A stretch of DNA of 64,000 nucleotides from an uncultured Bacilli bacterium (GCA_947629655.1 CANREL010000004.1:13577-77576), one strand, 5' to 3'. Positions 17,593-51,219 are shown, counted from the stretch's first letter. Translations and numbers: made by a program. The notes: generated by a model not told the origin, from the letters alone.

Positions 17593-18322
17593 AAAGATTT
17601 ATATTGATTCTTTTTTCTATTTTTTTATTTTGATTTCTTGCCTTACAGCTAATTTTAAAAATTTTTTATTATTTTTTTCCATTATTTTAATCCATGAGAT
17701 GGGTCATTTGATAGTTGGGGTACTTTTGGGATGGAATGTTGATAAAATATGTCTATATCCCTATGGTGGCATGACGCGGTTCAGTGAAGATATAAATAGA
17801 AAAATAAGTGAAGAATTATTAATTTTAATCAGTGGTCCACTAGTTCAAAGCATTTATTTTTTTATTGGTAATGAGTTATTTAAGAGTGCTAGTTTCAATT
17901 ACTATAACATAGCAATCTTATCATTTAATTTACTACCCATATATCCTTTGGATGGTGGTAGAATTCTAAATCTTTTGTTCAATTATTTTTGGTCGTTTAG
18001 AACTAGTTATCACTTATCGATGATAATATCTTTTGGCGTGGCTTTTTTACTACTTTGGATATCTTTAGTAAACGGTTATACTCTTAACATTATTCTAATG
18101 TTTTTAATCGTCATCTCTAAACTTGTAAAAGAGTTTAAAAAGAGGAGATACTATTTCAACAAATTTATTTTAGAGAGATATATGAACAATTATAATTTTT
18201 CAAAGTTAAAAATAATTTCATCAATAAAAAAGATGATGCGCGACTATCGTCACATCATCAAAAATAATGATACTTATTACACCGAAAAAGAATATTTAAA
18301 CAAATTATATCGAAGTAAATGA
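17558..18322 (+). CDS. spoIVFB: Site-2 protease (M50), SpoIVFB-like pro-sigma-K processing protease.
   Basis: HEMGHL zinc motif in a TM helix, and a second LDGG motif (NLLPIYPLDGGRIL). Confidence 0.7.
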   Translation: MENLSIIKSISKKIYIDSFFYFFILISCLTANFKNFLLFFSIILIHEMGHLIVGVLLGWNVDKICLYPYGGMTRFSEDINRKISEELLILISGPLVQSIYFFIGNELFKSASFNYYNIAILSFNLLPIYPLDGGRILNLLFNYFWSFRTSYHLSMIISFGVAFLLLWISLVNGYTLNIILMFLIVISKLVKEFKKRRYYFNKFILERYMNNYNFSKLKIISSIKKMMRDYRHIIKNNDTYYTEKEYLNKLYRSK

Positions 18323-31457: not shown

Positions 31458-33071
31458 ATGTTAGTTTGTGCATATATAGTAATGGCGGTTGTTTTCATCT
31501 ATTCAATGATTAAAATGAAAAGAAGTCTACATATGATTCAACAAAATTTATACAATGAGAATAATCGATATTTGAGATGGATCAGTAAGAATAGAAAAGA
31601 GATATATAAAAATCTTGATGTCTATGGAATCGTATTTGTTTTCTGTTATGCATGGTGTTTTAATACTTATGTATCATTCTATTTCTTTGGACTTATCATT
31701 GCTCTTTATTTGATTTCAACTATTATTAATATAAAGAGTAGACAGAATGATCAAAATAAGAAACCATTAGTCATAACAGCTAGAGTTAAGAGATTGATTG
31801 TGACGACAAGTGTTTTGTATTTAATTCCTTGTTTATTAGGAATATTTATCAAATCTAATTTATGCGATTTCATATTTTTATTATCAATTATGGCTGTTTT
31901 AAATTTTTATGTCGTATATCTTGCTTCAGTCATAAATATTCCAATTGAAAAGATGATTTATCATCACTATGAGAAACAAGCTAAAGAAAAGTTAGCAAGT
32001 ATGAAAAATCTCAAAGTTATTGGAATTACGGGAAGTTATGGTAAGACTAGCTGTAAAAATGTCTTAGCTGATGTTTTAAACATTAAATATAATACTTTGG
32101 CATCACCTAAGAGCATAAATACTTTTAATGGTCTAATGATAACAATAAATAATGAATTAACTAAGTTTGATGATTGTTTCATTGCTGAAATGGGGGCTTA
32201 TGTCAAAGGAGAAATAAATGGTTTGTGCAAATTAGTAAATCCTAAATATGGAATAATTACTAGTATTGGAACAGCTCATTTGGAAACTTTTGGTAGTGAA
32301 AAGAACATTCAAGAAGGAAAGATGGAACTTATTGAATATCTACCTAAAGATGGTGTTGGTGTTTTGAATCGTGATGATGAAAAACAAAAAAATTATAAAA
32401 TCAAAAAGAAAGATCATTGTAAGATACTTTGGGTAGGAATTGATAGCAAGGATGAAGTTGATGTCAAAGCACTCAATATAAAGTGTAGTAATGAAGGAAC
32501 TACTTTTGATTGCGTCTTCAAAGGTGATAAGAAAAAGTATCAATTCAAGACTAAACTACTTGGAAAACATAATGTCTATAACATAATTTCAGCGCTAGCT
32601 TTAGGACGTGAGTGGGGAATTGAAATAGATAAATTACAACAAGCAGTTAAAAAGATCAAACCGATTGAACATCGTTTAGAAATAAAAAAATTCAATAATT
32701 TTTATCAATTGGATGATGCATATAATTCTAATCCAGTTGGTGCTAAAGCGGCTTTAGATGTTTTAGATATGATGAATGGTGAAAAAGTTGTCATAACACC
32801 TGGGATGGTGGAACTTGGTGAAAAAGAAGAATACTACAATAGAGAATTTGGTAAACAAATAGCTGAAGTTGCTGATAGAGTAATCTTGGTTGGAGAAAAG
32901 AAGACTAAACCAATTTTACAGGGATTAAAAGATATGAAATTCAATGAGAAAGACATCAAAGTTATAAATGATGTCAGAGAAGCATATACAATTTTGAATA
33001 AGATTAATAGTAAGAAAAACGTTTATGCGCTTTTTGAAAATGATTTACCTGATACATATAATGAAAAGTAG
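31458..33071 (+). CDS. murF: MurF-like Mur ligase (D-Ala-D-Ala adding enzyme) with an N-terminal ~170-aa polytopic membrane extension in place of the usual N-terminal domain.
   Basis: GITGSYGKTS P-loop, DDAYNSNP and GMVELGE C-terminal motifs. Four TM helices precede the P-loop. Adjacent to ddl. Confidence 0.7.
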   Translation: MLVCAYIVMAVVFIYSMIKMKRSLHMIQQNLYNENNRYLRWISKNRKEIYKNLDVYGIVFVFCYAWCFNTYVSFYFFGLIIALYLISTIINIKSRQNDQNKKPLVITARVKRLIVTTSVLYLIPCLLGIFIKSNLCDFIFLLSIMAVLNFYVVYLASVINIPIEKMIYHHYEKQAKEKLASMKNLKVIGITGSYGKTSCKNVLADVLNIKYNTLASPKSINTFNGLMITINNELTKFDDCFIAEMGAYVKGEINGLCKLVNPKYGIITSIGTAHLETFGSEKNIQEGKMELIEYLPKDGVGVLNRDDEKQKNYKIKKKDHCKILWVGIDSKDEVDVKALNIKCSNEGTTFDCVFKGDKKKYQFKTKLLGKHNVYNIISALALGREWGIEIDKLQQAVKKIKPIEHRLEIKKFNNFYQLDDAYNSNPVGAKAALDVLDMMNGEKVVITPGMVELGEKEEYYNREFGKQIAEVADRVILVGEKKTKPILQGLKDMKFNEKDIKVINDVREAYTILNKINSKKNVYALFENDLPDTYNEK

Positions 33072-33083
33072 GAGATGATTTAA

Positions 33084-34286
33084 ATGATAAAAGTTGGTGT
33101 TATTTTTGGTGGAGAAAGCGTTGAACATGAAGTAAGTATTATTTCAGCTGTTCAAGCTATGAACAAGATGGATACTGAAAAGTATGAAATCGTACCCATC
33201 TATATCACAAAAGATGGTGAGTGGTATACAGGAGATTTCTTAAAGGAAATTGAAACATTCCAGGACATGCATCTTTTAAAAAAATATGCGAAAAATGTAG
33301 TTTTGTACAAGAGACATGGCAGCTATATCTTACAGAGCAAGGGCTTCTTTAGAAGTGTTGTCAAAGAAATAGATATCGCTTTTCCAATCGTTCATGGAAC
33401 GAATGTTGAAGATGGAGCTTTACAAGGATATTTAAAAACTATTGGTATTCCTTTTGTTGGACCAGATGTTTGTCCAGCAGCTATTGGTCAAGATAAAATC
33501 TTCCAAAAACAAATTTGGGGAAGTGAAGATTTACCAATTCCTAGATATACTTGGTTTTTTGATAGTGAGTATGAAGAAAATCCAGAAGAAGTCATTAAAA
33601 AAGTTGAAAAGATTAAATATCCAGTTATTGTTAAACCAGCTACTTTAGGTAGTAGTGTTGGTATCAGTGTTGCTCACAAAAAAGAAGAATTGATTGAAGC
33701 GATTGAGGATGCCATAACTTATGACAATAAGATTTTAGTTGAAGAAGTAATTGAAAACTTAGTTGAAGTTAATGTCAGTGTCGTTGGTAATCATGACAGT
33801 CTAGATACTAGTGTCATTGAACAAGTCTTGACGGGTAATGACTTACTTACATATGAAGATAAATATATTGGGGGAACGAAGAAGTCAAGCGCTAGTAAAG
33901 GAATGCTTTCAGCTACTCGTAAGATTCCTGCTGATATTGGTGATAAATTGACAAATGAAGTTAAAGACGTTGCTATTCGTGCTTTTAAAGCTTTGAATTT
34001 AAGTGGTGATGTCAGAATAGATTTCTTAATTGATTCAAAGAAGAAAAAAGTATATATAAATGAAGTTAATACCATTCCTGGTTCACTTGCTTTCTATTTG
34101 TGGGAACCAGTTGGTAAAGATTATACAGAATTATTAGATGAACTTATAAATGTTGCTGTTAAAGACTACAAAAAGCGCGTTAATAAGACACACTCTTTTG
34201 ATACTAATATACTAAGTGGATTTGCTAATGGATTAAAGGGGTCAAAAGGAATGAAAGGTGCTAAAGAAGTTAAATCTTTGAAGTAG
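33084..34286 (+). CDS. ddl: D-alanine--D-alanine ligase.
   Basis: MIKVGVIFGGESVEHEVSIISA N-terminus, ATP-grasp body, and a ~30-aa Lys/Gly-rich C-terminal tail. Confidence 0.9.
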   Translation: MIKVGVIFGGESVEHEVSIISAVQAMNKMDTEKYEIVPIYITKDGEWYTGDFLKEIETFQDMHLLKKYAKNVVLYKRHGSYILQSKGFFRSVVKEIDIAFPIVHGTNVEDGALQGYLKTIGIPFVGPDVCPAAIGQDKIFQKQIWGSEDLPIPRYTWFFDSEYEENPEEVIKKVEKIKYPVIVKPATLGSSVGISVAHKKEELIEAIEDAITYDNKILVEEVIENLVEVNVSVVGNHDSLDTSVIEQVLTGNDLLTYEDKYIGGTKKSSASKGMLSATRKIPADIGDKLTNEVKDVAIRAFKALNLSGDVRIDFLIDSKKKKVYINEVNTIPGSLAFYLWEPVGKDYTELLDELINVAVKDYKKRVNKTHSFDTNILSGFANGLKGSKGMKGAKEVKSLK

Positions 34287-34316
34287 TGTGACAATATTCT
34301 ACAGGGGGTGTAAGTA

Positions 34317-35450
34317 TTGGATAACTTTTTTGAATCGGGTTTGGACAGTTTGAGTGATGAAGCTCTTAAATATGTCGGAGTTACTAATCTCGATTTTAGA
34401 ACCCATCTCTCTAAAGATGAATTGTTGGAGGTTCAAAATATAATGTTCTCAATAAATACTTTAATACAGATCACTTTTAAAGATGGAACTTTTGTAAGCG
34501 ATATTGAGAATGTAAAACATTTATTAGAAAATTCACCAATGTGTGATGATAGAAAAATAGAGAAGATCATTCTCAGAAGAAATACATCTGATGAAGTTAA
34601 ACAGATATTGATGATGCCTTATGATAATCCTGATACTTGGAATATTGCTTATGATGTTCACGATGATACTTATATGATAACGACGTTACCCAATTATCGT
34701 CTCATGGAGGAATATATAGGTGTTGTTCTATCTTGTATTAAGGATGACATGAGTCCTTTGGAAAAAATAAAAGAAGTATATGATTTTGTCAAGTTATTGG
34801 AACTTGATGAAAAGGCGAGTAATAGATTTCCTGATATCATAAAAAATAGAGTCACTAACAATTTGGGATTTAATGTTTTATTCAGTGAAATTTTGAAGAG
34901 AATAGGAATTAAATCTTATATTGGGAAGATTCAAAGAGAACAGATGGAATATATCACAATTGTTTCTGTTAAAGATGAAAAGTATGAAGCAGATGGTATA
35001 TATGCATTTGATCCAGTTAGTGATTCAATTCCCAAGCATGCTTATAAAAATGATGCCATGCGTAAAATAAATTATAATTTTTTTGCTCTTTCTTTGAAAA
35101 AGATTGTTTCAACTACTTCTTCGGATAAATTATTAGAACCATTATCCCTATTAACTATTGATTCTTTAGATTTTTCAGAACGTCGAGTTAATGTCAATGA
35201 ACGTAGAAAGTTAGAAGAGATTTTTGATTCAAATTATGAAGAAATATTTAAAATAGTAAATAAAACTAAAGATATAAAAGATGAAAATTTATTAAATTTA
35301 TTCATTTCGACAGTTCATCGTGAAGATTTTATCAATTTGAATAGAGATATTGAAGAATTGATAAGAAACAATTATTATTTACGAAAGAAAGATCTTTTTA
35401 TAAATCTTAAGAAAGATGATATTGAAGATATGAATATTCATGATGTTTAA
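34317..35450 (+). CDS. Cytoplasmic hypothetical protein, possibly a degenerate transglutaminase-like fold.
   Basis: TTG start with a GGGGGTG RBS. MSPLEKIKEVYDFV...GIKSYIG resembles the transglutaminase-like core but lacks the catalytic Cys. Confidence 0.45.
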   Translation: MDNFFESGLDSLSDEALKYVGVTNLDFRTHLSKDELLEVQNIMFSINTLIQITFKDGTFVSDIENVKHLLENSPMCDDRKIEKIILRRNTSDEVKQILMMPYDNPDTWNIAYDVHDDTYMITTLPNYRLMEEYIGVVLSCIKDDMSPLEKIKEVYDFVKLLELDEKASNRFPDIIKNRVTNNLGFNVLFSEILKRIGIKSYIGKIQREQMEYITIVSVKDEKYEADGIYAFDPVSDSIPKHAYKNDAMRKINYNFFALSLKKIVSTTSSDKLLEPLSLLTIDSLDFSERRVNVNERRKLEEIFDSNYEEIFKIVNKTKDIKDENLLNLFISTVHREDFINLNRDIEELIRNNYYLRKKDLFINLKKDDIEDMNIHDV

Positions 35451-35480
35451 AGATTAAATAAGTTTATTTAATCTTTTTAT
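35451..35480 (+). terminator. Intrinsic terminator.
   Basis: AGATTAAATAA-gtt-TATTTAATCT hairpin followed by a T-run. Confidence 0.6.
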
Positions 35481-35541
35481 ATTGTTGTTATTTTCAAGAA
35501 GAAATGATATCATATAGATAGAATATAATAGGTGGTGCCAT

Positions 35542-38277
35542 ATGAAAAGAACTAATAAAAAGGGATTTACTCTAATGGAAGTAATAGCGGTCATAATAAT
35601 TTTAGGATTATTAATCATGATAGCTGTACCAGCCGTAAATAAACAGTTATCAAATTTTAGAGTAAATTATTATGATAAATTGGAGAGTAGTGCGAAAGCT
35701 GCTGGTGAAGATTATGTCTCAGATAAAAGATATGCGAAACCGACGAAACTTTTGTACTCTAAGGTTATTAAGATTAGTGAATTGGAAGATGAAGGGTATA
35801 TCGATGAAGTAAAAGATTATCTCGGTAATAAATGTGATTCGAAAGATACTTCATACAGTTATGTCGTCGTCGTTAAAACAGGAGAAAAAGAGTATCAATA
35901 TCAAGCATGTTTAAGATGTAGTGAAGATGAATATGCGACAAATACGAATGATAAAAAATATAATTTATGTGATACTGCTTGGTTAAATAATACAGGAATA
36001 GAATATGTTAAACCAGGTATTAGTAGTGATTTGTTATATGTTTATTATGGAACTACAGAACAAGAGATCAAAGAGCAAGTTGGAATAACTTACGATATTG
36101 TAAAAAGAGATCGAAATGGGGAAGTTTTAGCGCAAGTAAAAAACAGTGAAGCTGAAGAAGATGACATTCTATACCCACAAAACATTGGTGAATTAGTAGG
36201 AAAAAATGTCAATAGTATCGTTGAATTGCGTTATGTTTTACCAAATGGTGAGACTTTAACGAGAAGAGCTGTCATTTATAAACACAACGATCCAAAAGTT
36301 ACGATGACATATGGTAATGCCAATACAGTAACTGGTAAAAAAGTTGGCGATAAATATAATAATGGTAGTAATGAATGGGCAAGTAAATTAAATATAAAAA
36401 TTGAATTCTCACCTAGTGATATCAAAGAGATAACTGATAAGATTAACATGAAGACAGCTGAGTATTATGATCCTGCTACTAACAAATGGGTTGATACCAA
36501 TTGTAGTTTGAGTAGTGATAAAAAGAGTTGTACTTGGACGGTTGCTAGTAACTTTAATAAATCAGTCAAGATAAGAGTAGTTAATCAAAATGATCGCCGA
36601 GGTGATGGCATAAAAGAACACTCAATAAAAGTTGATATAACGAAACCGACATGTGCAAGTAACAATGGCAGTACGACGTGGGCAAAATCACGAACTGTCA
36701 CTGAGAGTTGTACAGATAGTGGTGGAAGTGGATGTAATAAAGGAAGTTATGCAATAACTTATCCAACTAGTTCAGTAAAAAATAAGAAAACTGATAACAT
36801 CACGATATATGATAATGCTGGTAATAGTCAAAGTTGTCCTGTCAATATTTATGTTGACTCAACACCACCTTCAAGTTGTGATGTAACATTACATGGTGTA
36901 ACTAATAATGGAACGACTAGTTCAGATATTACAATTGATGTCAAAGGTGTTGATAATGAAACTGATGCTAGTGGAATAAAGAGTGAAACAGTTGATGTCA
37001 AGTTAAATGGAAGTAGCCTTGGTGATATAAGAAATACGAGTGGTAAGAACAATGGTAAATATACAATAGTTGGAACTTGTACTGATAAAGCTGGAAATTC
37101 TAAAACTAGTGCAACGCAAACTTTCACTTTAAGTAAAAAGGTAACGATAAGCTATAGTGCTGGAGTTGGTGGTAGTGGAAGTATGGCTAGTACGACATGT
37201 GGTTATAATGAAAACTGTAACATAAGTGGAAACAGTTTTACTAGAACAGGATATCACTTCACGGGATGGAAAAATGGTAGTGCTAGTTATTTAGCTGGTG
37301 GAACGTATAAATTTACTTCAAATGTTACTTTGACAGCGCAATGGGCACCTAATACTTATACGATCAATTTCAATGGTAATGGTGCTAATGGTGGTGCAAC
37401 GGGAGCTGTTACTTGTACGTATGATCAAAATTGTACTTTGCCAGGAAATGGTTTTTCAAGAACGGGTTATAGATTTATTGGATGGGGTCTATCAACTGGT
37501 GATGGCGTTGTTTATAATAATGGCGCAACTGTTAATAATTTAGTTGCTAGTGGTTCAATTACGTTATATGCAAAATGGTCTGTTTACAAAGTTCACATCC
37601 GTTACAATACGAATGGTGGATCAATTTTGAGCAGTAATGCATCAGGAAGATGGTCAACATCTGGTAACAATGTTTATTTGAATGGTGCTTTATATGAAGA
37701 GACAATTGATTATGGTAGTAGAATGGGAAGTTCTGGTCTATCTAACTGGAATAATAGTGGATACATATACATAACACGCCCAAGTTATACAGCAGTACCT
37801 GGTCAAGAATGGGTATGTAATAGTGGATGTTCTTCCGTTGGTAGAAAGTTTAGTCAAGATGTCGTTTATAGTGCTAGTGACTTCTGTAATGCTGCTAATG
37901 GTGATTGTACAGTAACAGTGGGCGTTAACTGGCAAGTTGCCTGTGGACCAGTTTATTTGAGTGCTGTTTCAACTGGTGGTAACAATGGTGGTTACTGTTG
38001 GAATAACTGCATGGGTAAGAGTTGTCAAGATTATCGCATAACATTCTCAATTTCAGGATGTAATAGTGGCATGTATGGTCATGTCTGCTACTACAATCCA
38101 GCTGGTTACGGAATTAGTTGTAATGTCTTCCAAGCTACTTATCCAACTCATAACAGTGGATATGGTGTCGTTTGCTTCAACTCATCTACTAACTGGACAT
38201 ATGATAGATCAACTGAATGGGGATATGGTTATGTTTGTAATCAAGCTAACCAATGTGCTGAGAAAATAGCTCCATAG
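35542..38277 (+). CDS. Giant (911 aa) type-IV prepilin-like protein with Listeria-Bacteroides repeats and a Cys-rich C-terminal domain. Candidate pilus adhesin or giant pilin.
   Basis: Class-III signal KKGFTLMEVIAVIIILGLL (G/FTxxE). Two List_Bact repeats (FTRTGYHFTGWKNG...LTAQWAPNTYTINF and FSRTGYRFIGWG...LYAKW). The C-terminal ~150 aa contains more than 15 Cys. Confidence 0.7.
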   Translation: MKRTNKKGFTLMEVIAVIIILGLLIMIAVPAVNKQLSNFRVNYYDKLESSAKAAGEDYVSDKRYAKPTKLLYSKVIKISELEDEGYIDEVKDYLGNKCDSKDTSYSYVVVVKTGEKEYQYQACLRCSEDEYATNTNDKKYNLCDTAWLNNTGIEYVKPGISSDLLYVYYGTTEQEIKEQVGITYDIVKRDRNGEVLAQVKNSEAEEDDILYPQNIGELVGKNVNSIVELRYVLPNGETLTRRAVIYKHNDPKVTMTYGNANTVTGKKVGDKYNNGSNEWASKLNIKIEFSPSDIKEITDKINMKTAEYYDPATNKWVDTNCSLSSDKKSCTWTVASNFNKSVKIRVVNQNDRRGDGIKEHSIKVDITKPTCASNNGSTTWAKSRTVTESCTDSGGSGCNKGSYAITYPTSSVKNKKTDNITIYDNAGNSQSCPVNIYVDSTPPSSCDVTLHGVTNNGTTSSDITIDVKGVDNETDASGIKSETVDVKLNGSSLGDIRNTSGKNNGKYTIVGTCTDKAGNSKTSATQTFTLSKKVTISYSAGVGGSGSMASTTCGYNENCNISGNSFTRTGYHFTGWKNGSASYLAGGTYKFTSNVTLTAQWAPNTYTINFNGNGANGGATGAVTCTYDQNCTLPGNGFSRTGYRFIGWGLSTGDGVVYNNGATVNNLVASGSITLYAKWSVYKVHIRYNTNGGSILSSNASGRWSTSGNNVYLNGALYEETIDYGSRMGSSGLSNWNNSGYIYITRPSYTAVPGQEWVCNSGCSSVGRKFSQDVVYSASDFCNAANGDCTVTVGVNWQVACGPVYLSAVSTGGNNGGYCWNNCMGKSCQDYRITFSISGCNSGMYGHVCYYNPAGYGISCNVFQATYPTHNSGYGVVCFNSSTNWTYDRSTEWGYGYVCNQANQCAEKIAP

Positions 38278-38294
38278 TTAGAAAGGAAATTATT

Positions 38295-39122
38295 ATGAAA
38301 AAGAAAAACACAAAGAAAATTAAAAAGAATAATTCAAAAAAAGTTTTAATCGCATTTTCAATAATAGTGATGTTATCTATCATAACTTTGGCTCTATTTC
38401 TCATAAATAGCGACAATAAAAAATATAAGAGTAATAGAGAAGTAGTCGAAAATGTCATCAAAGATGTTTTCTTAACAGAAAATACTTCTCAAAAGAAAAT
38501 AGAAAATTATTTTGGTAATCAAACTGTAAAAGTATTTGTAGCAATGGGAGAGGATAGTTACTTGCGATATATCCCTCCAACTTTTACAGAAAAGAATGCT
38601 GACTACATGAAGTATGAAACTACTCAGAAAAAATATGCCGAAAAAGTAGAAGAAAAAATCTTGAACAACACGAGTTATGTCATAAGTGAGTATGAGGAAA
38701 ATGACAATTTGCAATTTAGGATAACCCCATGGTATTTTGCCCAATATTCCAGTGATTTGTCATATTTGAAAAATAAATTGTTAGAATTGAGTAATATTGA
38801 TCCAGAATTGGTTAATACTAATTATGATAAATATAGTTTTTATGAATATAAAGCTCGTGTTAAAGCTATGGAAATAATGGACAGATATTTAGATAATTAT
38901 GATAATAAAGATGAATCATTAGATTTTACTTTCTATTATGAAAATGGTGAACCCGCTGTTAATCAATATTTGAGTTTATATTTCAATTTAATTGGTATTA
39001 CATCAAAATACAATGTCAATAGTGATGAAAAAATAAAAGAACAAGTGACGAGAGTAGATAAATATTTAGATGAGGCAATTGATAAAAAAATAGTTGATAA
39101 AGATAATGCTTTAGCACTTTAG
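38295..39122 (+). CDS. Single-pass membrane protein, paralog 1 of a tandem pair.
   Basis: N-terminal K-rich segment and TM. About 45% identical to the 39136 ORF (ITPWYFAQYSSDLSYLKNKLLE vs VTPWYFALYSSDLSSLKNKLLE). Confidence 0.6.
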   Translation: MKKKNTKKIKKNNSKKVLIAFSIIVMLSIITLALFLINSDNKKYKSNREVVENVIKDVFLTENTSQKKIENYFGNQTVKVFVAMGEDSYLRYIPPTFTEKNADYMKYETTQKKYAEKVEEKILNNTSYVISEYEENDNLQFRITPWYFAQYSSDLSYLKNKLLELSNIDPELVNTNYDKYSFYEYKARVKAMEIMDRYLDNYDNKDESLDFTFYYENGEPAVNQYLSLYFNLIGITSKYNVNSDEKIKEQVTRVDKYLDEAIDKKIVDKDNALAL

Positions 39123-39135
39123 AAAGAAGATAATT

Positions 39136-39975
39136 ATGAATAAAAAGAGAATAATTGGATTAGTAATAATGGTGTTGGGAAGTATTTGTATATTGAGTTC
39201 TGTTTTCATGATGGTGATCAATTTTTCAAAAGATGACAATACTCCAAAAGATAATGATGAAAGTAATGAAGAAACAACAGAATCAAAACATACTAAAGAA
39301 GTGAAAGAAAATATTGAAAACATCTTTTTAAACGATGATACATCTAGTGATAAAATTGAAGAAATAACAGGTAAAGAAGTGCGTTTTGACTATGTCGTTT
39401 TAGGTAGTGATAGCTATCTTCGCAGTAGACCTACGAGTGAAGTCATCGCTAGTGAAAAACTTGATGATTATGTCACTAAACAAGATGAATATGCTAAAAA
39501 AGTGGAAAAAAATTATAGAGATAATACTGAATATGTCATCGTTGAAGGTGATGATAAAAATTTGAATTTTCAAGTTACACCATGGTATTTCGCTCTATAT
39601 TCTAGTGATTTATCCAGTTTAAAAAATAAATTATTAGAGATGGCTAATGTCGATTTGAGTTTAATTGATACTGATTATTCTAAATATTCTATTTATGAAT
39701 ATAAAGCTCGCGTTAAAGCAATGATAATTTTAGATAGTTATTTAAATAATTATAAAAATGATAATGAAAATATTGATTTCGTATTCTATTACGAAAATGA
39801 TAAACCAGCACCTGATCAATATCTCAACTTGTATTATAATTTAATCGGTTCTACTTCTAAGTACATGACTAATAATGAAGAACAATTAAAAGTACAAGTT
39901 ACAAGAGTAAATGATTATCTCAATCAAGCTATTGAAAATGGTTTAATTGATAAAAATGATGTTTTAGGATTGTAG
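39136..39975 (+). CDS. Single-pass membrane protein, paralog 2 of the tandem pair.
   Basis: Same architecture as 38295 and colinear homology through the C-terminus (YEYKARVKAM...FYYEN...YLNLYYNLIGSTSKY). Confidence 0.6.
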   Translation: MNKKRIIGLVIMVLGSICILSSVFMMVINFSKDDNTPKDNDESNEETTESKHTKEVKENIENIFLNDDTSSDKIEEITGKEVRFDYVVLGSDSYLRSRPTSEVIASEKLDDYVTKQDEYAKKVEKNYRDNTEYVIVEGDDKNLNFQVTPWYFALYSSDLSSLKNKLLEMANVDLSLIDTDYSKYSIYEYKARVKAMIILDSYLNNYKNDNENIDFVFYYENDKPAPDQYLNLYYNLIGSTSKYMTNNEEQLKVQVTRVNDYLNQAIENGLIDKNDVLGL

Positions 39976-39981
39976 TTTTTT

Positions 39982-40012
39982 TAAGAGAATTTTTATTCTC
40001 TTTTTCTTATTT
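39982..40012 (+). terminator. Intrinsic terminator.
   Basis: AAGAGAAT-tttt-ATTCTCTT hairpin followed by a T-run. Confidence 0.55.
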
Positions 40013-40029
40013 TAAAATATCTATTACTA

Positions 40030-40038
40030 TGTTATAAT
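40030..40038 (+). promoter_or_regulatory. Extended -10 element TGtTATAAT upstream of the tad genes.
   Basis: TGTTATAAT lies 32 nt upstream of the ATG at 40070. Confidence 0.35.
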
Positions 40039-40069
40039 TATATTGATAATAATAGGAAGGGTTGATTTG

Positions 40070-40426
40070 ATGAAAAATAAGCAAAGTGGTCAAGCATTAA
40101 TAGAATTTGTCATTATTTTACCAGTTGTGATCTTGCTTATTTTTTCTTTTGTAGATTTGGGTAGAATTGTTTTAGAAAATAATAGATTAGAGAATTTAAC
40201 TACGAGTGTTATTGAAAAATATAATGAGACTAAAAAATATGATGATGTCATTTCTTATATCGATTCATTAGGATATGAAAAAGTTGATTTATCTATTTCT
40301 GCACATGATGATATGTTGACGATTAAACTCACTGAAAAAATTGACTTAGTTACGCCAGGACTTTCAAAAATCATGGGTGATCCTTATAAAGTTGAAGTAG
40401 AGAGAGTTGTTAAATATGAAAAATGA
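40070..40426 (+). CDS. TadE-like pseudopilin.
   Basis: N-terminus SGQALIEFVIILPVVILLIFSFVDLGR matches the TadE-like domain (G/xxxxEF). Confidence 0.65.
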   Translation: MKNKQSGQALIEFVIILPVVILLIFSFVDLGRIVLENNRLENLTTSVIEKYNETKKYDDVISYIDSLGYEKVDLSISAHDDMLTIKLTEKIDLVTPGLSKIMGDPYKVEVERVVKYEK

Positions 40427-41192
40427 AAAAGGTCAAGTATTAGTTCTTTTCATAATGATTTTACCACTTCTATTATTAGGAGGAGCGTGTATCGTTGATT
40501 CTTCTTATATGTTATATCAAAAAAATCGTTTAGATAATATAAATCGTGATGTTTTGAATAGTGTCAATAATAGTTCTTCTTTGAGTGAAGAAGTAATTGA
40601 TGAAATAATTAGAGAAAATGATGCGAAAATTGTCAATGATGAGATATCGATTGATGAGAAAATTGTGATTAAAAATCATGTGATGGTCGATAGCCTATTT
40701 GGAAAGATAATAGGTATTGATAAATATAGAGTCAATTCAGAAGTCAGTGTAAAAGCTAAGAGATTGATATTAGATATCGATAGTTTAAAGAATATTGATA
40801 ATACTGGTAATTATTCAGTTATCAATAATAATGTCATTTATGATGGAGGATTAGTTTTTAAAGATTCTGATTTGGTGATTAATAATTTTAATATGAATGG
40901 TGACTTTGAGATAAATATTTCTTTTTCATTTGAAAAAAATGGTAATTTATTAGAATTCAATAATCTTTTGATAAATATTAGTAATGATGAATTATTCATA
41001 AATGGAAAAAGAGTTACTAGTTTAAAAATTGGTGAAAAATATGATTTAGTCATAACTAAAGATCGAGTTGTATTAAATGGTGATAGTTCAGTATCTTCTA
41101 ATGATATTGACAATTATTCTGGTGATTTGATCATTGGTAAGGGATTCAGTGGAAAAATAGAATTCATAAAAATATATAATATTGGAAATTAG
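40416..41192 (+). CDS. TadE/TadG-like pilus-assembly protein.
   Basis: N-terminus EKGQVLVLFIMILPLLLLGGACIVD matches a TadE-like N-terminal helix. The ATG at 40416 overlaps the upstream stop. Confidence 0.55.
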   Translation: MKNEKGQVLVLFIMILPLLLLGGACIVDSSYMLYQKNRLDNINRDVLNSVNNSSSLSEEVIDEIIRENDAKIVNDEISIDEKIVIKNHVMVDSLFGKIIGIDKYRVNSEVSVKAKRLILDIDSLKNIDNTGNYSVINNNVIYDGGLVFKDSDLVINNFNMNGDFEINISFSFEKNGNLLEFNNLLINISNDELFINGKRVTSLKIGEKYDLVITKDRVVLNGDSSVSSNDIDNYSGDLIIGKGFSGKIEFIKIYNIGN

Positions 41193-41200
41193 GTGAAAAT

Positions 41201-41974
41201 ATGGAAAGTAAAAAAGGTAAAATTCTTACGATTACATCAATGAAGGGTGGAGTTGGAAAAACGATGGTGACGATGCTTCTAGCTAATGTTTTTTCGAAAT
41301 GTGGTAAAAAAGTATTAGTTGTCGATTTGGATTTATACAATGGTAATTTAGCTTTTGCTTATAAAACTAGAGTAAAAAGTTCTATCTATAATTTGTGTGA
41401 TGACATAGCTAATAATCGTTTAGTCAATGGAATAACATCTGAATACGTTTCAAAGATAAGTGATAATTTATACTTTATCGCGGCACCTAAGGATCCACGT
41501 CAAGCTAATAAGATTGATAATAAATATCTCGATAGCATTTTGAAATCATTATCTTTTTTATACGATGTCATTTTAATCGATACTAATCATATATTAAGTG
41601 TTTCTAACATGGTCGCTTTTGAAAACAGTTATAAGATTGTTGACCTTGTCACCAATGACAGCTTTGATTTACAGAGTACGAAGAGTTTTGTGGCCATCTG
41701 TAAGAACATGGGTGTTGACAATTTAGTTTTGATGTTAAATAACGCCATTGATTCACGAAGAGGTTACTATACGACTTATGACATGAAAAATATTACGAAG
41801 AAGAATATTGATTATACAATTCCAAGCGCTTTCTATTTAAAGAATTTTGATCAGTTGGTAATGGATGGTAAGATTGGTTTCTTTGATGAATATTTAAAGG
41901 GTGAAGCTAAAAAGAGTTTGGAAGATTTTGCTGGTCACATGTTAAGTCTCATTGATGATGGAGGTAAGGAATAA
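41201..41974 (+). CDS. CpaE/TadZ-like ParA/MinD-family ATPase.
   Basis: Deviant Walker A SMKGGVGKT. Positioned between the tadE-like and cpaF genes. Confidence 0.7.
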   Translation: MESKKGKILTITSMKGGVGKTMVTMLLANVFSKCGKKVLVVDLDLYNGNLAFAYKTRVKSSIYNLCDDIANNRLVNGITSEYVSKISDNLYFIAAPKDPRQANKIDNKYLDSILKSLSFLYDVILIDTNHILSVSNMVAFENSYKIVDLVTNDSFDLQSTKSFVAICKNMGVDNLVLMLNNAIDSRRGYYTTYDMKNITKKNIDYTIPSAFYLKNFDQLVMDGKIGFFDEYLKGEAKKSLEDFAGHMLSLIDDGGKE

Positions 41975-43359
41975 TGAAGAAATCTAGTTGGTTAGAAGAA
42001 TTTGATGTAGTTGATCTATCTCCTAAAGTTGATACTCATGAATCTGATTATGAAGTGTTTGAAGATAAGAAGTTACTCGACAATTTTAGAAATAGTATCA
42101 TTCAGGAATTGATCGATAGTAATATAAGTGATAATAGTAATTTATCACAATACATAAATGAAGAAATAGACCGCATTACTGATGGATATGATTTGAGTGG
42201 TCAAGAGAGAAATTATCTTTTGAATTTGATTGAAAATGAAGTTAATGGTTATGGACCAATTACGGAGCTTTTGGATGATAAAAACGTTACAGAAATAATG
42301 ATAAATGGTCCAGATGAAATATATATTGAAGTCGATGGTGTTCTATCACGTGATAAAAGTGTTTCTTTTATCAATGCTGATCACATCATTCGAACTGTTC
42401 AAAGAATAATTCAACCCCTTGGTAGAACGATAGATTCCGCAAGTCCGATGGTCGATTCGCGACTTCCTGACGGTTCAAGAATTAATGCGATCATTCCACC
42501 ATTGTCTGTCAAAGGACCAGTGGTGACAATTCGTAAATTTAAAGATGATATCGACAATATCGATTCTCTAATTGGTAATGGAACACTAACACCTTATATG
42601 GCTAGATTTTTAGATGCCTGTGTCGATGCACGATTAAATATTTTGGTCTGTGGTGGTACTGGTAGTGGTAAGACGACACTTCTAAACGTCTTATCAAACT
42701 TTATCGGTAATGAAGAGAGAATAATCACGATTGAGGATGCTGTCGAATTGCGATTAAAACAAGATCATGTCATTTCACTTGAGACTAAAAGTACTAACTA
42801 TGATCAAGAAGGCGAAGTGACAATTCGTGATTTGGTCAGAAACTCATTACGTATGCGACCTGACCGCATAATTGTTGGTGAAGTTCGTGGTAAAGAAGCA
42901 TTTGATATGCTTCAAGCGATGAATACTGGTCATGATGGAAGTTTGACTACGTTGCATGCCAATGGTTGTAGAGACGCTTTAAATAGACTTGAAACGATGA
43001 TTTTAATGGGTGAGTTGGAACTTCCTATCAAAGCTATCCGCGGTTATATAGAAAGCGCAATTGATATCGTCATATCAGTTGAAAGATTGAGTGATGGTAA
43101 GAGAAAAGTTACATCAATATCAGAAATTGTCGGTTTTGATGGGGAAAACATTCAATTAAAAGAAATATTTGGTTTTATTAAACATGGATTGACGGAAAGT
43201 AAAGAGGTAAATGGAGAATTCATCCTATACGATTACGTTCCAGAAGTTTATGAAAAGATTAAGAGTCGTGGTATTAATACCATTGATGACATGTTTGTAA
43301 AAGAGGAAAAAAAGAAAAAAAGTTCAGTTAAAAAAACAACAAAAAAGACTAAAAAGTAG
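41974..43359 (+). CDS. tadA: CpaF/TadA secretion ATPase (type II/IV secretion NTPase).
   Basis: Walker A GGTGSGKTTLLN, Asp box, Walker B IIVGEVRG, His box TTLHANG. 461 aa. Confidence 0.9.
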   Translation: MKKSSWLEEFDVVDLSPKVDTHESDYEVFEDKKLLDNFRNSIIQELIDSNISDNSNLSQYINEEIDRITDGYDLSGQERNYLLNLIENEVNGYGPITELLDDKNVTEIMINGPDEIYIEVDGVLSRDKSVSFINADHIIRTVQRIIQPLGRTIDSASPMVDSRLPDGSRINAIIPPLSVKGPVVTIRKFKDDIDNIDSLIGNGTLTPYMARFLDACVDARLNILVCGGTGSGKTTLLNVLSNFIGNEERIITIEDAVELRLKQDHVISLETKSTNYDQEGEVTIRDLVRNSLRMRPDRIIVGEVRGKEAFDMLQAMNTGHDGSLTTLHANGCRDALNRLETMILMGELELPIKAIRGYIESAIDIVISVERLSDGKRKVTSISEIVGFDGENIQLKEIFGFIKHGLTESKEVNGEFILYDYVPEVYEKIKSRGINTIDDMFVKEEKKKKSSVKKTTKKTKK

Positions 43360-43370
43360 GAAGTGATAAA

Positions 43371-44387
43371 ATGGATACAGCACTTGATATAATCATTTTT
43401 ATAATTCAAGTGATAACAGGATTTGTACTGTTGTACATCGCTTATCGTCTATTCAGATTTTATCGAACAGTAGGGTTTGATAAGCGCTTTGGACCTTATT
43501 CTGTCGAATTGTTAGAAGATGATAGTGAATCGTTTTTTGACATGGTCAGTTATTATTATGACAAAGTACAAAATTATCTTTCAAAGTCTTTGATAAAAAT
43601 AAAAATATTTGATAGTTATAGTAAAAAATATGAAAAGTATAGTTATGGAAAAAGAGTTAATGCGATAGATGATATGAATTATATATCGAAAAAGATATTC
43701 ATTGGTTTACTATGTGTATTTCTACTATTATTCTCTTGTATTTTTAGATATGTACACGTAAGTTTACTATCGATTTTATTAGCTTTCTTAGTAGGTTTTT
43801 TTGCTCTTGATGTCTATTTGATAATTTATGATAGAATGCGAAAAAACAGTATTGAAAAAGATATTAATAAAGCGGTCATCATCATGAATAATGCCTTTAA
43901 ATCAGGTTATAGTATCATGCAGGCAATATACCTTGTCCATACACAAATGGATGGGGCGATAAGTGAAGAATTTAGAAAGATGTACATCGATATTACTTTT
44001 GGGTTGAACATGGAAGTAGTCTTTAATCGTTTCGCTGATCGCGTTGATTGTGTTGAAGCTCGCTACATGGCTACATCTTTAGGTGTTGTCAATAGGACTG
44101 GTGGAAATATCATTCAAGTTTTTGATGCCGTTGAAAGAAATGCTACGACGAGGCAACGATTGAAAGAAGAACTTAGCAGTGTTTCAGCATCGGCTCGTGC
44201 TATGTTTAAGATTTTGGTATGCATTCCAATATTCATAATTGGTATTCTATTGATTTTAAATCCTACTTATTTTGCACCACTATTCAAAACACCAATAGGT
44301 ATTTTGTGTTTGTTATTGAGTGTGATCATATATGTTTTATACATCATCATCATTAGAAAAATTATATATGTGGAGGTTGATTTATGA
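43371..44387 (+). CDS. tadB: TadB-like (T2SS-F family) inner-membrane platform protein.
   Basis: 338 aa with three or four TM helices and a T2SF-like cytoplasmic domain. Follows cpaF. Confidence 0.7.
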   Translation: MDTALDIIIFIIQVITGFVLLYIAYRLFRFYRTVGFDKRFGPYSVELLEDDSESFFDMVSYYYDKVQNYLSKSLIKIKIFDSYSKKYEKYSYGKRVNAIDDMNYISKKIFIGLLCVFLLLFSCIFRYVHVSLLSILLAFLVGFFALDVYLIIYDRMRKNSIEKDINKAVIIMNNAFKSGYSIMQAIYLVHTQMDGAISEEFRKMYIDITFGLNMEVVFNRFADRVDCVEARYMATSLGVVNRTGGNIIQVFDAVERNATTRQRLKEELSSVSASARAMFKILVCIPIFIIGILLILNPTYFAPLFKTPIGILCLLLSVIIYVLYIIIIRKIIYVEVDL

Positions 44388-45097
44388 AAAAGGTAAAGAA
44401 TAAGAAAAGAACTCTTTCACGTAGTATTTTTTCTAAGAGACAAATCGATAGAATTCAAAGAAAAATCGATTTATTAGGTGAAAATAGTAAATTTGATGCG
44501 ATTTTCTTCTTAAATTTGCGCTTTATTTCTTCCATAGTTCTATTTTTAGTGGTATTATATGTATTTGAGTTGGGGTACTTCTTAGCACCACTAATCACGT
44601 TTATTTACTATTATTTAATTTACTATCTTTTAATTGAATACAATATAAATAAGAGATGTGATAAATTAGATGTTGAAGCGATGTATTTTTTTGAAGTTAT
44701 GACTTTGGCATTAGAATCTGGTAATAATTTAAAAAATGCTTTAGATATGACTTGTAGTAATGTGGACAATGAATTGTCTAGAGAATTTCGTAAAGCTCTT
44801 GATGAAGTTGATTACGGAAAGAGTTTGAATGAAGCTTTAGAGAGTTTGAAGCTTAGAATACCTTCGGATACAATTAACAATATTATTTTGAATATCATGC
44901 AATCTAATATTTTTGGTAATAATATAACTAATGATATGTACAATCAATTGGATTACATTAGAGATAGAGAAATTCAAAAAGCTAAGAGTAGAATTAGTAA
45001 AATACCTCTATACGTATCAGTCATTTCAGTCGTATTTTATGTACCTTTGATAATGTTGTTGATTTTATCACCAGTTATAATAGAATTTTTAAGTTAG
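44384..45097 (+). CDS. tadC: TadC-like (T2SS-F family) inner-membrane platform protein.
   Basis: 237 aa with TM helices. Start overlaps the tadB stop (ATGA). Confidence 0.65.
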   Translation: MKKVKNKKRTLSRSIFSKRQIDRIQRKIDLLGENSKFDAIFFLNLRFISSIVLFLVVLYVFELGYFLAPLITFIYYYLIYYLLIEYNINKRCDKLDVEAMYFFEVMTLALESGNNLKNALDMTCSNVDNELSREFRKALDEVDYGKSLNEALESLKLRIPSDTINNIILNIMQSNIFGNNITNDMYNQLDYIRDREIQKAKSRISKIPLYVSVISVVFYVPLIMLLILSPVIIEFLS

Positions 45098-45108
45098 GAG
45101 ATGTTAAA

Positions 45109-45828
45109 ATGAGTGGACATTCAAAGTGGGCAACTATCCATAGAAAAAAAGGATTATTGGATGCTGAAAGAGGAAAGATTTTCCAAAAGATTGCTAAAGA
45201 ATTATACGTAGCTGCGAAAGGGACAAATGGTAATCCAGATGATAACCCCGGTTTGCGCTTAGTAGTTGAAAAGGCAAAGAGTAATAACATGCCTAAAGAC
45301 AACATTCAAAAAGCGATTGATAAAGCTGTTAAATCAGCTGGTGGTGAAGACTATGAATCAGTTAGATACGAGGGATATGGTCCAAATGGTGTCGCATTCA
45401 TGGTTGATTGCTTAACTGATAATCGCAATAGAACAGCGATGCTTGTCAGATCAACTTTTACTAAACGTGGTGGAAATCTTGGAACTGACGGATCTGTTTC
45501 ATACATGTTTGAAAGACGTGGGGTTATCGTCATCGATAAAACTCTTGAAGAAGATGAAGCAATGATGGTATGCCTAGATAATGGTGCAGATGATTTCATC
45601 GTCAATGATGACAGTTATGAAATATATACGACACCTGATGATTTCATCAAAGTAAAGACAGCTTTAGAAGAAAGTGGTGTCAAAGAGTTTTTAACTAGTG
45701 AGATTACATATGTAGCTAATAATTTAGTTGAACTTGATGAAGAAGCAACAGAAAGAGTCATGGCCTTAGCTGATGCTCTAGATGAAATTGATGACGTTCA
45801 AAACGTATATCATAATTTGAGTATTTAA
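45109..45828 (+). CDS. yebC: YebC/PmpR-family transcriptional regulatory protein.
   Basis: MSGHSKWATIHRKKG N-terminus, 239 aa. Confidence 0.9.
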   Translation: MSGHSKWATIHRKKGLLDAERGKIFQKIAKELYVAAKGTNGNPDDNPGLRLVVEKAKSNNMPKDNIQKAIDKAVKSAGGEDYESVRYEGYGPNGVAFMVDCLTDNRNRTAMLVRSTFTKRGGNLGTDGSVSYMFERRGVIVIDKTLEEDEAMMVCLDNGADDFIVNDDSYEIYTTPDDFIKVKTALEESGVKEFLTSEITYVANNLVELDEEATERVMALADALDEIDDVQNVYHNLSI

Positions 45829-45853
45829 GTAGATTTATATCTACTTTTTTTGT
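45829..45853 (+). terminator. Intrinsic terminator after yebC.
   Basis: AGTAGAT-ttat-ATCTACT hairpin followed by T7. Confidence 0.65.
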
Positions 45854-45877
45854 ATACTATAAAGGGTGGTGATCTAA

Positions 45878-48800
45878 ATGAGCTATATAAAATCTTTTGA
45901 TGAAGAAGAATTTGAATCTTTAAAAGAGTATTGTCAAAAATATAGTTCTCAATATGGACTCAGTGCTCATGTCATGGAGTTATTAGATGAGAATGGACTT
46001 TATTATTTGAATAAATTTGTCAATGATGATGAAGATTTTGATGAACGTGATTTTGATACTTTAATAAGAGCTTTCTTTGATGGTTTTGATTTTTATTATG
46101 ATCGTTTAGATGATAATTATTTATTAGCGGCTAAAGAAAAATTAGAAGAGACTTTTTCATTCTTTGAAGATAGTCATTTAGATGATGAACACAAAAGTGA
46201 AATTGTCGATAATTTTTTTGAAATACTATCGAGTTATACGCGTGAAGAGTTGAGTGATAGTAAAGCTTTATACTATTTATTGACTTCTGATGTTTTTAGA
46301 AGGAGCAACATGGTTAAAGAATATTTGTACAATTCTTATAATTCGGTTGCTACTAGTAAAGAAAAGTTGGTCTTTTTTGTCAAAAATCTATATGATTTAT
46401 TGAACAAATTACCATATGAAGATGCTCACAAAGTCGATTATATATTTTTGAGTAGTTCTGATGCCTTCACTTATTTTTTAGATGTACCTGAAGAGATGAA
46501 TATCTTTTTTAATGAGAGAATTTTATCAAAATTTGGAAAAGAGACCTTGAGCTTTCTATTCAGAATGTCAGATTATTCTGTCTTCAGCAGTTTTTGTAGA
46601 TCTGATGATAAGTTTTTGTCTGTCGTAGCAGCTATGAATGAATACGTATTAAAAAAATATAATAAAAATTCTTATTTCTTTGATGGAGTTTTTAAATTTT
46701 TTAACAGATTTGAGAAAAAAGATATTAGAGCTAGAAAAATAATCATTGATCTATTCTCTGAATATTATGACAAATATTTTGAAGAAAGTAAAAAGAATGG
46801 TTTTGAAAACGATGAGATTTTTAATAATTTATTGGGATTAATTCTGCAACATCGTGATGTAATATATTTTTTGAATGAAAAAAATATTGAAAATTTAGAT
46901 GATTTCTTTAAAGCGACGAGAGAGAAAATAGATGAATTACACACGACTATATTTGGTAAGGAAGGTTTGGTCAAGTTTAAATATGGTGTCTTTGATCCAA
47001 AAAAAGATTTTCCACCTTTTGAGATGCGAGTACAGGGACTACACGATTTGAAAAATGCTTTCTTGCAAAGAGTTTATGGAATAACTTATGAAGATGCCTT
47101 TTATATCGCGTCAAAATATGGAACTTTTATCGAGCTATGTCAAGATGAAATAGCGGATGAAGATCGTGATGTTTATGAGATAGTTAAGACGATAACCGAT
47201 GTCGCTAATATGATTGATTACAATGGTAATAAAATAAATAATATTAGATTAGCTGCCCATGAATTTATTAAGAATAAGGGACTTTATAATTATAATAATG
47301 GGTCTTGTTATCCGATTCTATTATCATTGATTAATCGCATGTACATGCATGCATATAATGATTGTGTCTTTAAAGTTGATGAAAATTCTAAAGTTTTATA
47401 TCGTCAAAGAAAAGTTCCTGTAATTGATGCAGGAGTTAATTTCAACATGATTGTAAGTTCTATCAATGCTGTTGATGAGTTTTATACCAGTCGTGATAAC
47501 ATGATGGAGAAGTACAACATATCGAGTCGTTCCAATAATCAAGGAATTTGTGCAAGTTTTATCAATAATGAAAGTTTAGGAGTCATATCTTTACGCCAAC
47601 CATTAATTGGGTATGCCAATTTAGCTGATGACAGTTTGGATGCGATGGGAGTTGGTGATATATATTCCAAAACGATTGATTTAGATTTGTTGAGAGCTAA
47701 TTCTACAACTGGTGAGGGAAATTATTTCTTCACTCCTAAAAAATATATCGATTATACAAGATTTGGATATAACGAAATGGTCGTTGATCGCTTTTTGGTC
47801 AAAGATGATGACGATGCGATAAAAGTTCAACCGAGTTACATAGTTGTCTATAAAATAGATGACAATTATAAAAAGACTAGAATGTATAAAAAAGGAATAA
47901 GAATGGCTAGAGATTTTGGTGTTCCACTAGTCTTAGTTGACGTTCCAAAAGTTAAAGAAAATGAACGTGATATCATTCTTCAAAAAGAAAAAGAATTATT
48001 CAAAAGTAGTAAAGTCGATAAGGAATTATTAAATGAAATAGTAACGCGTTATATGAATAATTACAGTGGATCTTTAACGATTATGCGAAGTCGAAATCGC
48101 CGTGGAAATGAATGGCACTATCCAAAGGATTTCTCTGTGCGTGGTTTGACGAGATTTTTAGATAAAGTGGCTCGAAAGTTTGAAGATTTTGATGAAGCAC
48201 AAATAGAAGAGTGGAGTCAAGCTTTGAACGAAGTTTATAATTTAGAAAAAGAAAAGAACAAAATGGCTTTACAAATAAATGATTATGAGGATTCATTGAG
48301 TGGTGGAGAATTTTTACTCGATGATAAGATCATGTTTTCAGAATTTGTTCAAAATATCAAAGATCGCAATATCAATCGTCTTCTTCTCAGAAAGGGCATG
48401 TTTGATCAAGATAAATATTTACACATACCAGATGTCAAAGTACCAAGTGATGTCCAATTGATTGTCGATTTAGCAAACTTATTGTGTAAGAGTAAAGTTT
48501 ATGCCAATGTCAGTGGTCACAATGGGGAAAATATTTATCAGACGAAGAAGACTTATGATTATAGTGAAGAAGAAAAAAATGCTTATGGTCTCGTAATTTC
48601 TTATTTACTTGGGGACTATAGTACTAATTATTTTGCTAATCTCGATACTTGTGATATTACAAATATCAAAATTGATGAAAATATCCAACGCGTTGAGAGG
48701 TGCCTAGATGGCAATGATGCTTTTTCTAATCAGAATATCGATACAGAATTGTTATTAAAAGTTGCTACAGATATTGAAGATCTACCAACGGCAATCTTTT

Positions 48801-51200: not shown

Positions 51201-51219
51201 AAGATAGTGGGTGAAAAAG

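Follow-up and report, generated by a model that had tools for sequence, protein, structure and literature searches.

Background

Modular pilins, in which a pilin module is joined to other domains, are widespread tip adhesins that number more than 1,200 proteins in 264 architectures; large ones are already known in monoderms, and the most extreme multi-domain case cited has 860 residues (PMC8179133). Modular tips made of TadE, TadF or TadG proteins have been shown for the Kil pili of Myxococcus, and other Tad systems have been suggested to carry them too (PMC12075869). Gram-positive tad operons that have a TadE-like gene and no flp were described in 2011, with the suggestion that the TadE-like protein could be a structural subunit (Imam et al. 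2011, PMC3244431). The TANB77 Tad locus holds unannotatable pilin-like genes of 143-237 residues together with a 621-residue TadE/PilV-like protein (PMC11680825). Here we analyse 64,000 nucleotides of DNA from an uncultured Bacilli bacterium (GCA_947629655.1 CANREL010000004.1:13577-77576; the window), in which a cassette encoding a 911-residue type IV pilin-like protein and two membrane-anchored partners (35542-39975) lies next to a Tad operon (40070-45097).

We read the locus as two adjacent, separable modules with the Tad machine as the candidate assembly system for the pilin, an explanation that is tentative as a whole, its joint probability standing a little short of even. The Tad operon and the modular pilin each belong to known kinds, and the interest lies in two patterns at the level of the lineage: an expanded family of giant adhesins that are fused to pilin modules and have membrane partners of their own, and type IVa (T4a)-class modules embedded in Tad operons. 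An earlier note on this DNA had regarded a giant pilin-like adhesin assembled or displayed by a Tad-like platform in a Gram-positive organism as unusual, a view weakened by the large modular pilins (PMC8179133) and flp-less tad operons (PMC3244431) already described.

A modular pilin with a class III signal

The N-terminus of the 911-residue protein, MKRTNKKG|FTLMEVIAVIIILGLL, was confirmed as a true prepilin signal of class III (GFTLME). It scores above cutoff against both Pfam N_methyl (24.6 bits; cutoff 21.2) and NCBIfam TIGR02532 (25.4 bits; cutoff 16.3), and there are weak matches to ComGC, GspG and PilE1. Across 20-36 homologs the glutamate at +5 (E13) is invariant, while the glycine at -1 (G8), the phenylalanine at +1 (F9) and several cysteines and tyrosines in residues 1-145 are conserved at 90% or above. 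The protein begins with a leader (residues 1-8, MKRTNKKG), a predicted cleavage site between G8 and F9 and a pilin module at about 9-150, continues with beta-rich immunoglobulin-like (Ig-like) domains (about 150-540) and two Flg_new (Listeria-Bacteroides) repeats (about 541-680), and ends with a widespread repeat domain of about 105 residues (691-800) and a Cys-rich region (801-911). The Flg_new repeats and weak Ig-like matches were returned by Pfam and NCBIfam searches. There are 30 cysteines in all, with 14 in the final 153 residues, slightly fewer than the more than 15 previously counted in the last ~150.

Structure prediction with AlphaFold gave a mean predicted local distance difference test score (pLDDT) of 70.7 for the full-length protein and 84.8 for a model of the N-terminal 200 residues. 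The model has a 51-residue helix (11-61), then a small beta domain, and confident beta-sandwich domains as far as residue 681; the C-terminal 230 residues, with a pLDDT of about 30, yielded no usable model. The body of the protein is similar to the Ig arrays of the giant adhesins SiiE and GhpA. The domain of about 105 residues recurs in 355 cluster representatives, often in multiple copies. When seven of these were sampled, six had Flg_new and five of those six also N_methyl, the seventh being an unrelated cadherin-repeat protein. With an N-terminal pilin module followed by non-pilin domains (two Flg_new repeats and Ig-like domains), the 911-residue protein is, as judged from its sequence, a genuine modular pilin that would probably be processed and enter a filament.

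In these respects it resembles the modular minor pilins (Streptococcus sanguinis PilB with its vWA domain and PilC with its lectin domain, and CofB of enterotoxigenic Escherichia coli; Raynaud et al. 2021, PMC8179133), in which a class III signal and a small pilin module are also fused to adhesion modules; as in S. sanguinis, the host is a monoderm and tip display would be expected. Unlike the pilins of that survey (PMC8179133), it has 911 residues and relatives of up to 1906, compared with 860, a stalk of Ig-like and Flg_new repeats with a Cys-rich end, a place beside a Tad operon and not within a pil operon, and dedicated 275- and 279-residue membrane partners without a known counterpart. 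It also differs in belonging to a highly expanded multigene family: GFTLxE genes number about 13-20 per Mb, and even the closest homologs of the 911-residue protein are just 54% identical to it. Relatives were also seen in tandem, with three giant N_methyl proteins within 15 kb in locus L085 (1398-15057), two in L096 (10001-13915) and three in L097 (3-11126), one of which has 1906 residues. These arrays point to a rapidly diversifying multigene family.

The membrane partners and the autonomy of the cassette

The giant pilin gene is followed by genes for two paralogous proteins of 275 and 279 residues, each crossing the membrane once by an N-terminal anchor. Neither has a Pfam, NCBIfam or PDB match, and just two homolog clusters were found among 5.8 billion proteins. 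Where homologs do occur, they accompany giant pilins. In L001 a homolog of the 275-residue protein lies directly downstream of a giant pilin (E=1e-18), and L098 copies the cassette of the window, with a 1056-residue N_methyl protein and two homologs of the 275-residue protein (41% identity), in a locus that contains no Tad genes; in both L098 and L099 the homologs form a pair. Tad genes were also absent from all 11 further contexts of giant-pilin relatives spanning both flanks (L001-L003, L084-L086 and L095-L097, with up to 10 kb on each side, and the shorter contigs L088 and L089). The relatives in these contexts sit amid housekeeping genes, frequently in tandem, and downstream of each come one or two small proteins with a membrane anchor, which belong to diverging families. 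Since the same cassette is present in L098 without Tad genes, and since Tad genes are missing from the 11 contexts, the giant pilin and its two downstream genes are a self-contained, autonomous cassette. That the two partners serve this cassette specifically, as chaperones or assembly factors in the membrane, is speculative.

The Tad operon and its relatives

Pfam and NCBIfam searches recovered the full Tad gene set listed in the earlier note (two TadE-like proteins, TadZ, TadA, TadB and TadC). The operon encodes a TadA ATPase, separate single-domain TadB and TadC proteins, a TadZ-like protein and TadE/TadG-like proteins, and the window holds neither a short Flp pilin nor a TadV/CpaA peptidase. 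A search with TadA returned 62 related loci (60-76% identity), all from metagenome-assembled genomes of uncultured gut Bacilli, 'Tenericutes' or 'Mollicutes', among them Clostridium sp. CAG:710, Firmicutes bacterium CAG:822 and Candidatus Coprosoma; complete genomes of these relatives measure 1.2-1.34 Mb. Their gene order (tadE, tadG-like, tadZ, tadA, tadB, tadC) is conserved. A metagenome scan for further relatives added just eight short loci, one of which (L093) shares the gene order murF, ddl, 377-residue gene.

The open reading frame (ORF) of the TadE-like protein can start at 40043 or 40070, the ATG at 40070 being preceded by a ribosome-binding site, AGGAAGGG. Its N-terminus, MKNKQSG|QALIEF, carries a processing motif of the Flp class, and orthologs, recognised by this motif, are found at the corresponding place in almost all of the 62 related loci. 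Because the TadE-like protein has a motif of its own (KQSG|QALIEF), the description of the 911-residue protein as the only canonical prepilin stands for the T4a class and fails for prepilin-like proteins at large. The TadG/F-like protein (N-terminus MKNEKG|QVLVLF, without Glu at +5; starts at 40407 or 40416) has 258 residues, against 97-136 for its orthologs in relatives, owing to a unique C-terminal extension of about 140 residues that has no Pfam or PDB match. A ConA/LamG-like lectin module was considered for this extension and found no support in Pfam (E up to 10) or in PDB sequence searches. The TadZ-like protein keeps its position in relatives at 32-54% identity, and the Walker A motif of TadA is GGTGSGKTT, with BasE among the NCBIfam matches of this ATPase. 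In many relatives (e.g. L009 11326-12846) TadB has about 500 residues, with an N-terminal Bact_surface_Ig-like domain of about 170 residues fused to T2SSF; the window TadB (338 residues) lacks this N-terminal domain.

As in the Tad/Flp (type IVc) pili of Aggregatibacter, Caulobacter and Myxococcus (Kil) (PMC12075869), TadA, TadB, TadC, TadZ-like and TadE/G-like proteins are present, and Flp occurs in relatives. Unlike those classical systems, this is a monoderm version that has no secretin, RcpC or TadD, its TadZ is missing the receiver-like domain with which classical TadZ begins, and flp and tadV are outside the locus. That a large modular minor pilin functionalises a Tad tip is an idea established for KilN and TadG (PMC12075869), but the candidate modular pilin here has a T4a-type GFTLxE signal and not one of the TadE/G type. 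The extended TadG/F-like protein, too, may be a minor pilin of the modular kind. The flp-less operons described previously (PMC3244431) likewise combine Tad biosynthetic genes with a TadE-like gene and no flp in the operon, whereas close relatives of the window operon do have flp. The TANB77 locus (PMC11680825) is also from an uncultured gut Firmicute of reduced genome and pairs a Tad cluster with pilin-like genes; however, TANB77 belongs to the Clostridia, has CpaB and a fused TadBC, and no GFTLxE giant pilins are reported for it.

The absence of flp from the window held up in each search made. A six-frame scan for the G/A-xxxx-E/Q motif followed by a hydrophobic stretch gave no Flp ORF in the 64 kb, with N-terminal class III-like signals only in the 911-residue protein and TadE; no candidate was found among small ORFs with a hydrophobic stretch at 33000-46000; and in tblastn searches with five genuine Flp pilins of relatives the sole match in the window was the N-terminus of TadE. 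An flp overlooked between the cassette and tadE or elsewhere in the operon, which the earlier note had allowed for, was not there, and the gap concerned (39976-40069, 94 nucleotides) is shorter than any pilin gene needs. The window also has no A24-peptidase-like ORF, as judged from the GxGDxK motif in hydrophobic ORFs and from a reading of all ORFs. This absence is typical of the lineage, since the prepilin-peptidase motif was found in none of the 62 related loci by a scan that did detect TadV in the distant Tad loci L075, L077 and L082.

A canonical Flp ORF of 63-89 residues lies directly 5' of tadE in 24-26 of the 62 loci (for example MVKLGKKG|QALVEYLLIIAVISV...C...C; Flp_Fap E=9e-6), with the processing site G|QALVEY, and flp is absent beside tadE in about 24 further evaluable loci, as it is in the window; roughly half of the related species thus have an Flp gene at this place. 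Because relatives carry a canonical flp beside tadE, the Tad system of the window is a normal Flp-type system, and the absence of flp here is therefore a loss or relocation at the level of the locus or lineage, not the mark of a distinct Tad class. The lack of a small Flp, previously taken as a trait of the system, belongs to this locus rather than to the system.

The nearest syntenic relatives, L004 and L005, share the order murF, ddl, 377-residue gene, ..., tad, yebC, and in them the slot before tadE is occupied by three to four tandem secreted paralogs of about 180 residues. More broadly, flp-less relatives were seen to have one to four tandem paralogs of 165-195 residues just 5' of tadE (L004 6578-8390, L005 5906-8407), with the same type at L055 7904-8407 and L058 3337-3855; their N-terminal signal ends in ...AYA|AFSTTLxINGTASI. 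These paralogs could be an alternative fibre subunit. A TasA/SipW-type identity was also considered for them and set aside, the matches to Peptidase_M73 (E=0.012) and BsaA (E=0.035) being faint.

Candidate machines for the giant pilin

How the 911-residue pilin is processed and polymerised, and by which machine, we infer as follows. The prepilin would be inserted into the membrane, where a peptidase whose gene lies outside the window would cut it after Gly8. Its pilin module could then dock into a type IV filament via the alpha1 helix with the conserved Glu+5, so that the protein would serve as a low-abundance or tip subunit with its adhesin stalk held past the cell wall. The neighbouring Tad machine would build this filament, with TadE and the TadG-like protein as priming pseudopilins. 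Judged by gene position only, Tad is the leading candidate machine, although we would place its likelihood somewhat under an even chance.

In seven relatives GFTLxE pilins are found within or against the Tad operon. L015 has a 151-residue GFTLxE pilin between flp and tadE, and L063 has in the same place one of 1074 residues with DUF285/LRR modules; in L056 a 591-residue GFTLxE pilin with Flg_new precedes tadE. Elsewhere in the operon, tadA is followed by a 172-residue GFTLxE pilin in L025 and, in L042, by one of 341 residues and a frameshifted copy ahead of tadB; tadC is followed by GFTLxE pilins of 452 and 467 residues in L017 and, after about 0.6 kb, by one of 210 residues in L027. The stand-alone 151-residue pilin of L015 passes TIGR02532 and aligns with residues 5-144 of the 911-residue protein, which is its entire pilin module (29% identity, E=5e-11). 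As a rule, it is structural or surface (secreted) genes that occupy the slot 5' of tadE.

Several observations weigh against assembly by Tad. There is no major pilin in the window; the cassette and tadE are divided by the sole sizeable intergenic gap, in which a weak hairpin and a promoter-like site are found; and the contexts of giant-pilin relatives described above are free of Tad genes. The density of GFTLxE genes is 19.9 per Mb within 1 kb of Tad versus 13.2 per Mb in the outer flanks (binomial p=0.29), so that adjacency to Tad is not significantly enriched, because the family is very abundant. Moreover, four related loci (L047/L100, L045, L055 and L065) carry a PilB/GspE-type ATPase, which belongs to the machine class that normally handles GFTLxE pilins; the lineage may therefore have a second type IV filament machine, a possible true partner of the giant pilin. 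The proposal that a giant adhesin is displayed by Tad has, accordingly, gained from the GFTLxE pilins in related Tad operons and lost from the autonomy of the cassette, the non-significant enrichment and this ATPase. In some relatives the ATPase gene was observed about 7 kb from the Tad operon.

The giant pilin might, on this evidence, be the substrate of another machine elsewhere in the genome, with a PilB/ComGA-type ATPase, a PilC/ComGB platform and a PilD/ComC peptidase, and lie beside Tad by chance, such genes being so numerous in the genome. We consider this unlikely. In its favour, GFTLME is a signal of the T4a/Com class, in line with the weak ComGC, GspG and PilE1 matches; the ATPase in L047 (483-3650) and L100 (8177-11344) is divergent from 424-residue KGFLLVE and 148-residue KGFTVVE pilin-like genes; it recurs in 120 cluster representatives among the matches listed, all 80-100% identical and many on several contigs; and most giant-pilin relatives are remote from Tad. 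Yet no PilC or PilD gene stands beside the ATPase, the window holds neither a PilB-type ATPase nor any other gene of a T4a pilus or Com system, and coincidence would have to account for the GFTLxE pilins inside several Tad operons of relatives, including the homolog of the 911-residue pilin module between flp and tadE.

It is also conceivable, but quite improbable, that the 911-residue protein is never polymerised, and that the class III signal serves for insertion and, after cleavage, for anchoring in the membrane by alpha1, with the 275- and 279-residue partners aiding folding or positioning. The Sulfolobus bindosome (Bas), an archaeal system in which large functional surface proteins with a prepilin-type signal are served by a type IV pilus-like ATPase and a membrane protein, and whose cargoes are substrate-binding proteins, provides a precedent in its sugar-binding proteins with class III signals; the likeness lies in that signal on large surface proteins. 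A large family (~13-20 per Mb), scattered and mostly without linked assembly genes, in which every giant pilin gene has its own small membrane-anchored partner, would suit such an anchor, and sizes of up to 1906 residues are awkward for incorporation into a filament. However, a plain anchor would not need an invariant Glu+5, the nearly invariant Gly-1 and Phe+1 or an entire globular pilin module kept across the family, and the stalk would still have to cross peptidoglycan, as the window encodes murF, ddl and mreCD. The least likely of the rivals, to which we give very little weight, is that the Tad platform has lost Flp and that the 911-residue protein is now its dedicated principal pilin or cargo. 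While the window has no flp and the giant pilin gene occupies the slot 5' of tadE where relatives have flp or other structural genes, a filament shaft of 911-residue subunits is implausible, the cassette exists independently of Tad in L098, and flp-less tad operons with only TadE-like genes were already known (PMC3244431). About 24 related loci without flp beside tadE have no giant pilin there either, so that the two changes, loss of flp and gain of a giant pilin, are uncoupled. L063 and L015 retain flp with a GFTLxE pilin in the slot.

Display of the giant pilins on Tad pili would make them the main host- or partner-facing adhesins of an as-yet-unculturable lineage, and would mean that Tad machines can take T4a-class modular pilins. 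A bolder extension, which we regard as doubtful, is that Tad in this lineage is a hybrid that polymerises Flp/TadE-like subunits and also accepts T4a-class (GFTLxE) modules. A genome of ~1.3 Mb would then hold about 20 swappable pilin-fused tips, each with its own membrane partner, as a monoderm counterpart, on another pilin class, of the 'adaptable tips' of Myxococcus Kil. Should the two modules be neighbours by chance, what remains is an ordinary Tad operon without flp beside one member of a large adhesin family. These abundant, uncultured, reduced-genome gut Bacilli spend an unusual share of their coding capacity on pilin-fused giant surface proteins. The surface filaments of such clades are of practical interest because pilin-like proteins of another uncultured gut clade have recently been tied to immunotherapy response (PMC11680825).

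Locus layout and neighbouring genes

The window has a G+C content of about 30% and a GC skew that is positive throughout, and 53 of its 55 ORFs of at least 100 residues are on the + strand. The region consists of nine closely spaced genes, with yebC next at 45109 (Table 1). The promoter-like site ahead of the cassette lies within a 91-nucleotide gap downstream of the 377-residue gene. The possibility that the cassette ends in an intrinsic terminator ahead of tadE was considered and not accepted, since the weak AT-rich hairpin there was not called by the terminator scan and is suggestive at most. Together with the promoter-like site in the same 94-nucleotide gap, the hairpin is suggestive, and no proof, of a transcription boundary. 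Searches of the 64-kb window for tRNA genes and for Rfam families (gathering threshold) were negative.

Table 1 Features of the pilin cassette and the Tad operon, in window coordinates.
Feature	Coordinates	Strand	Basis
Promoter-like site ahead of cassette, TTGTTA-17-TATCAT with upstream TG	35485..35513	+	Consensus scan only
Modular type IV pilin-like protein, 911 residues	35542..38277	+	Pfam, NCBIfam
First cassette partner, 275 residues, N-terminal membrane anchor	38295..39122	+	Position, homologs, paralogy
Second cassette partner, 279 residues, paralog of the first	39136..39975	+	48% identity to the 275-residue protein
Weak AT-rich hairpin and T-rich tract, possible cassette terminator	39983..40002	+	RNA fold -7.2 kcal/mol, z=-1.2, not significant
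Promoter-like site TTTAAA-16-TGnTATAAT, 32 nucleotides 5' of the tadE ATG	40011..40038	+	Consensus scan only
TadE-like pseudopilin, 118 residues	40070..40426	+	PF07811, 39 bits (cutoff 22.9)
TadG/TadF-like pseudopilin, 258 residues	40416..41192	+	PF13400, 20.4 bits (just under the 22.3 cutoff)
TadZ/CpaE-like ParA/MinD-family ATPase, 257 residues	41201..41974	+	AAA_31, CbiA and ParA matches
TadA/CpaF-family secretion ATPase, 461 residues	41974..43359	+	T2SSE 215 bits; best NCBIfam model TadA family, 313 bits (under the 373 equivalog cutoff)
TadB-like platform protein, 338 residues, one T2SSF domain	43371..44387	+	Pfam, synteny
TadC-like platform protein, 237 residues, one T2SSF domain	44384..45097	+	Pfam, synteny

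Downstream of the operon, three paralogous proteins of about 1000 residues (32-34% identity over 700-1000 residues) and a 430-residue relative of their N-terminal part are encoded at 45878-48958, 51211-52503, 53730-57098 and 57111-60092; none of the four matches a Pfam family or has an obvious signal peptide. Interleaved with them are genes for a 272-residue protein, a PHP-domain protein and a 367-residue protein that looks ADP-ribosylglycohydrolase-like by eye. Further surface proteins are found on both sides of the locus. Those at 27466-29100 and 61700-62731 have a signal peptide, a cohesin domain, cadherin-like beta-sandwiches and a C-terminal membrane anchor. The protein at 20565-22130 has Ig-like domains and a transglutaminase-like core, and that at 26048-27454 has repeated Ig-like regions and, by eye, a polysaccharide-deacetylase-like part; together with the pilin cassette, these two reveal how heavily the organism invests in surface proteins. 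Two further genes were assigned by eye only: a sporulation-type sigma factor (25278-25976) and an M50 site-2-protease-like gene (17558-18322).

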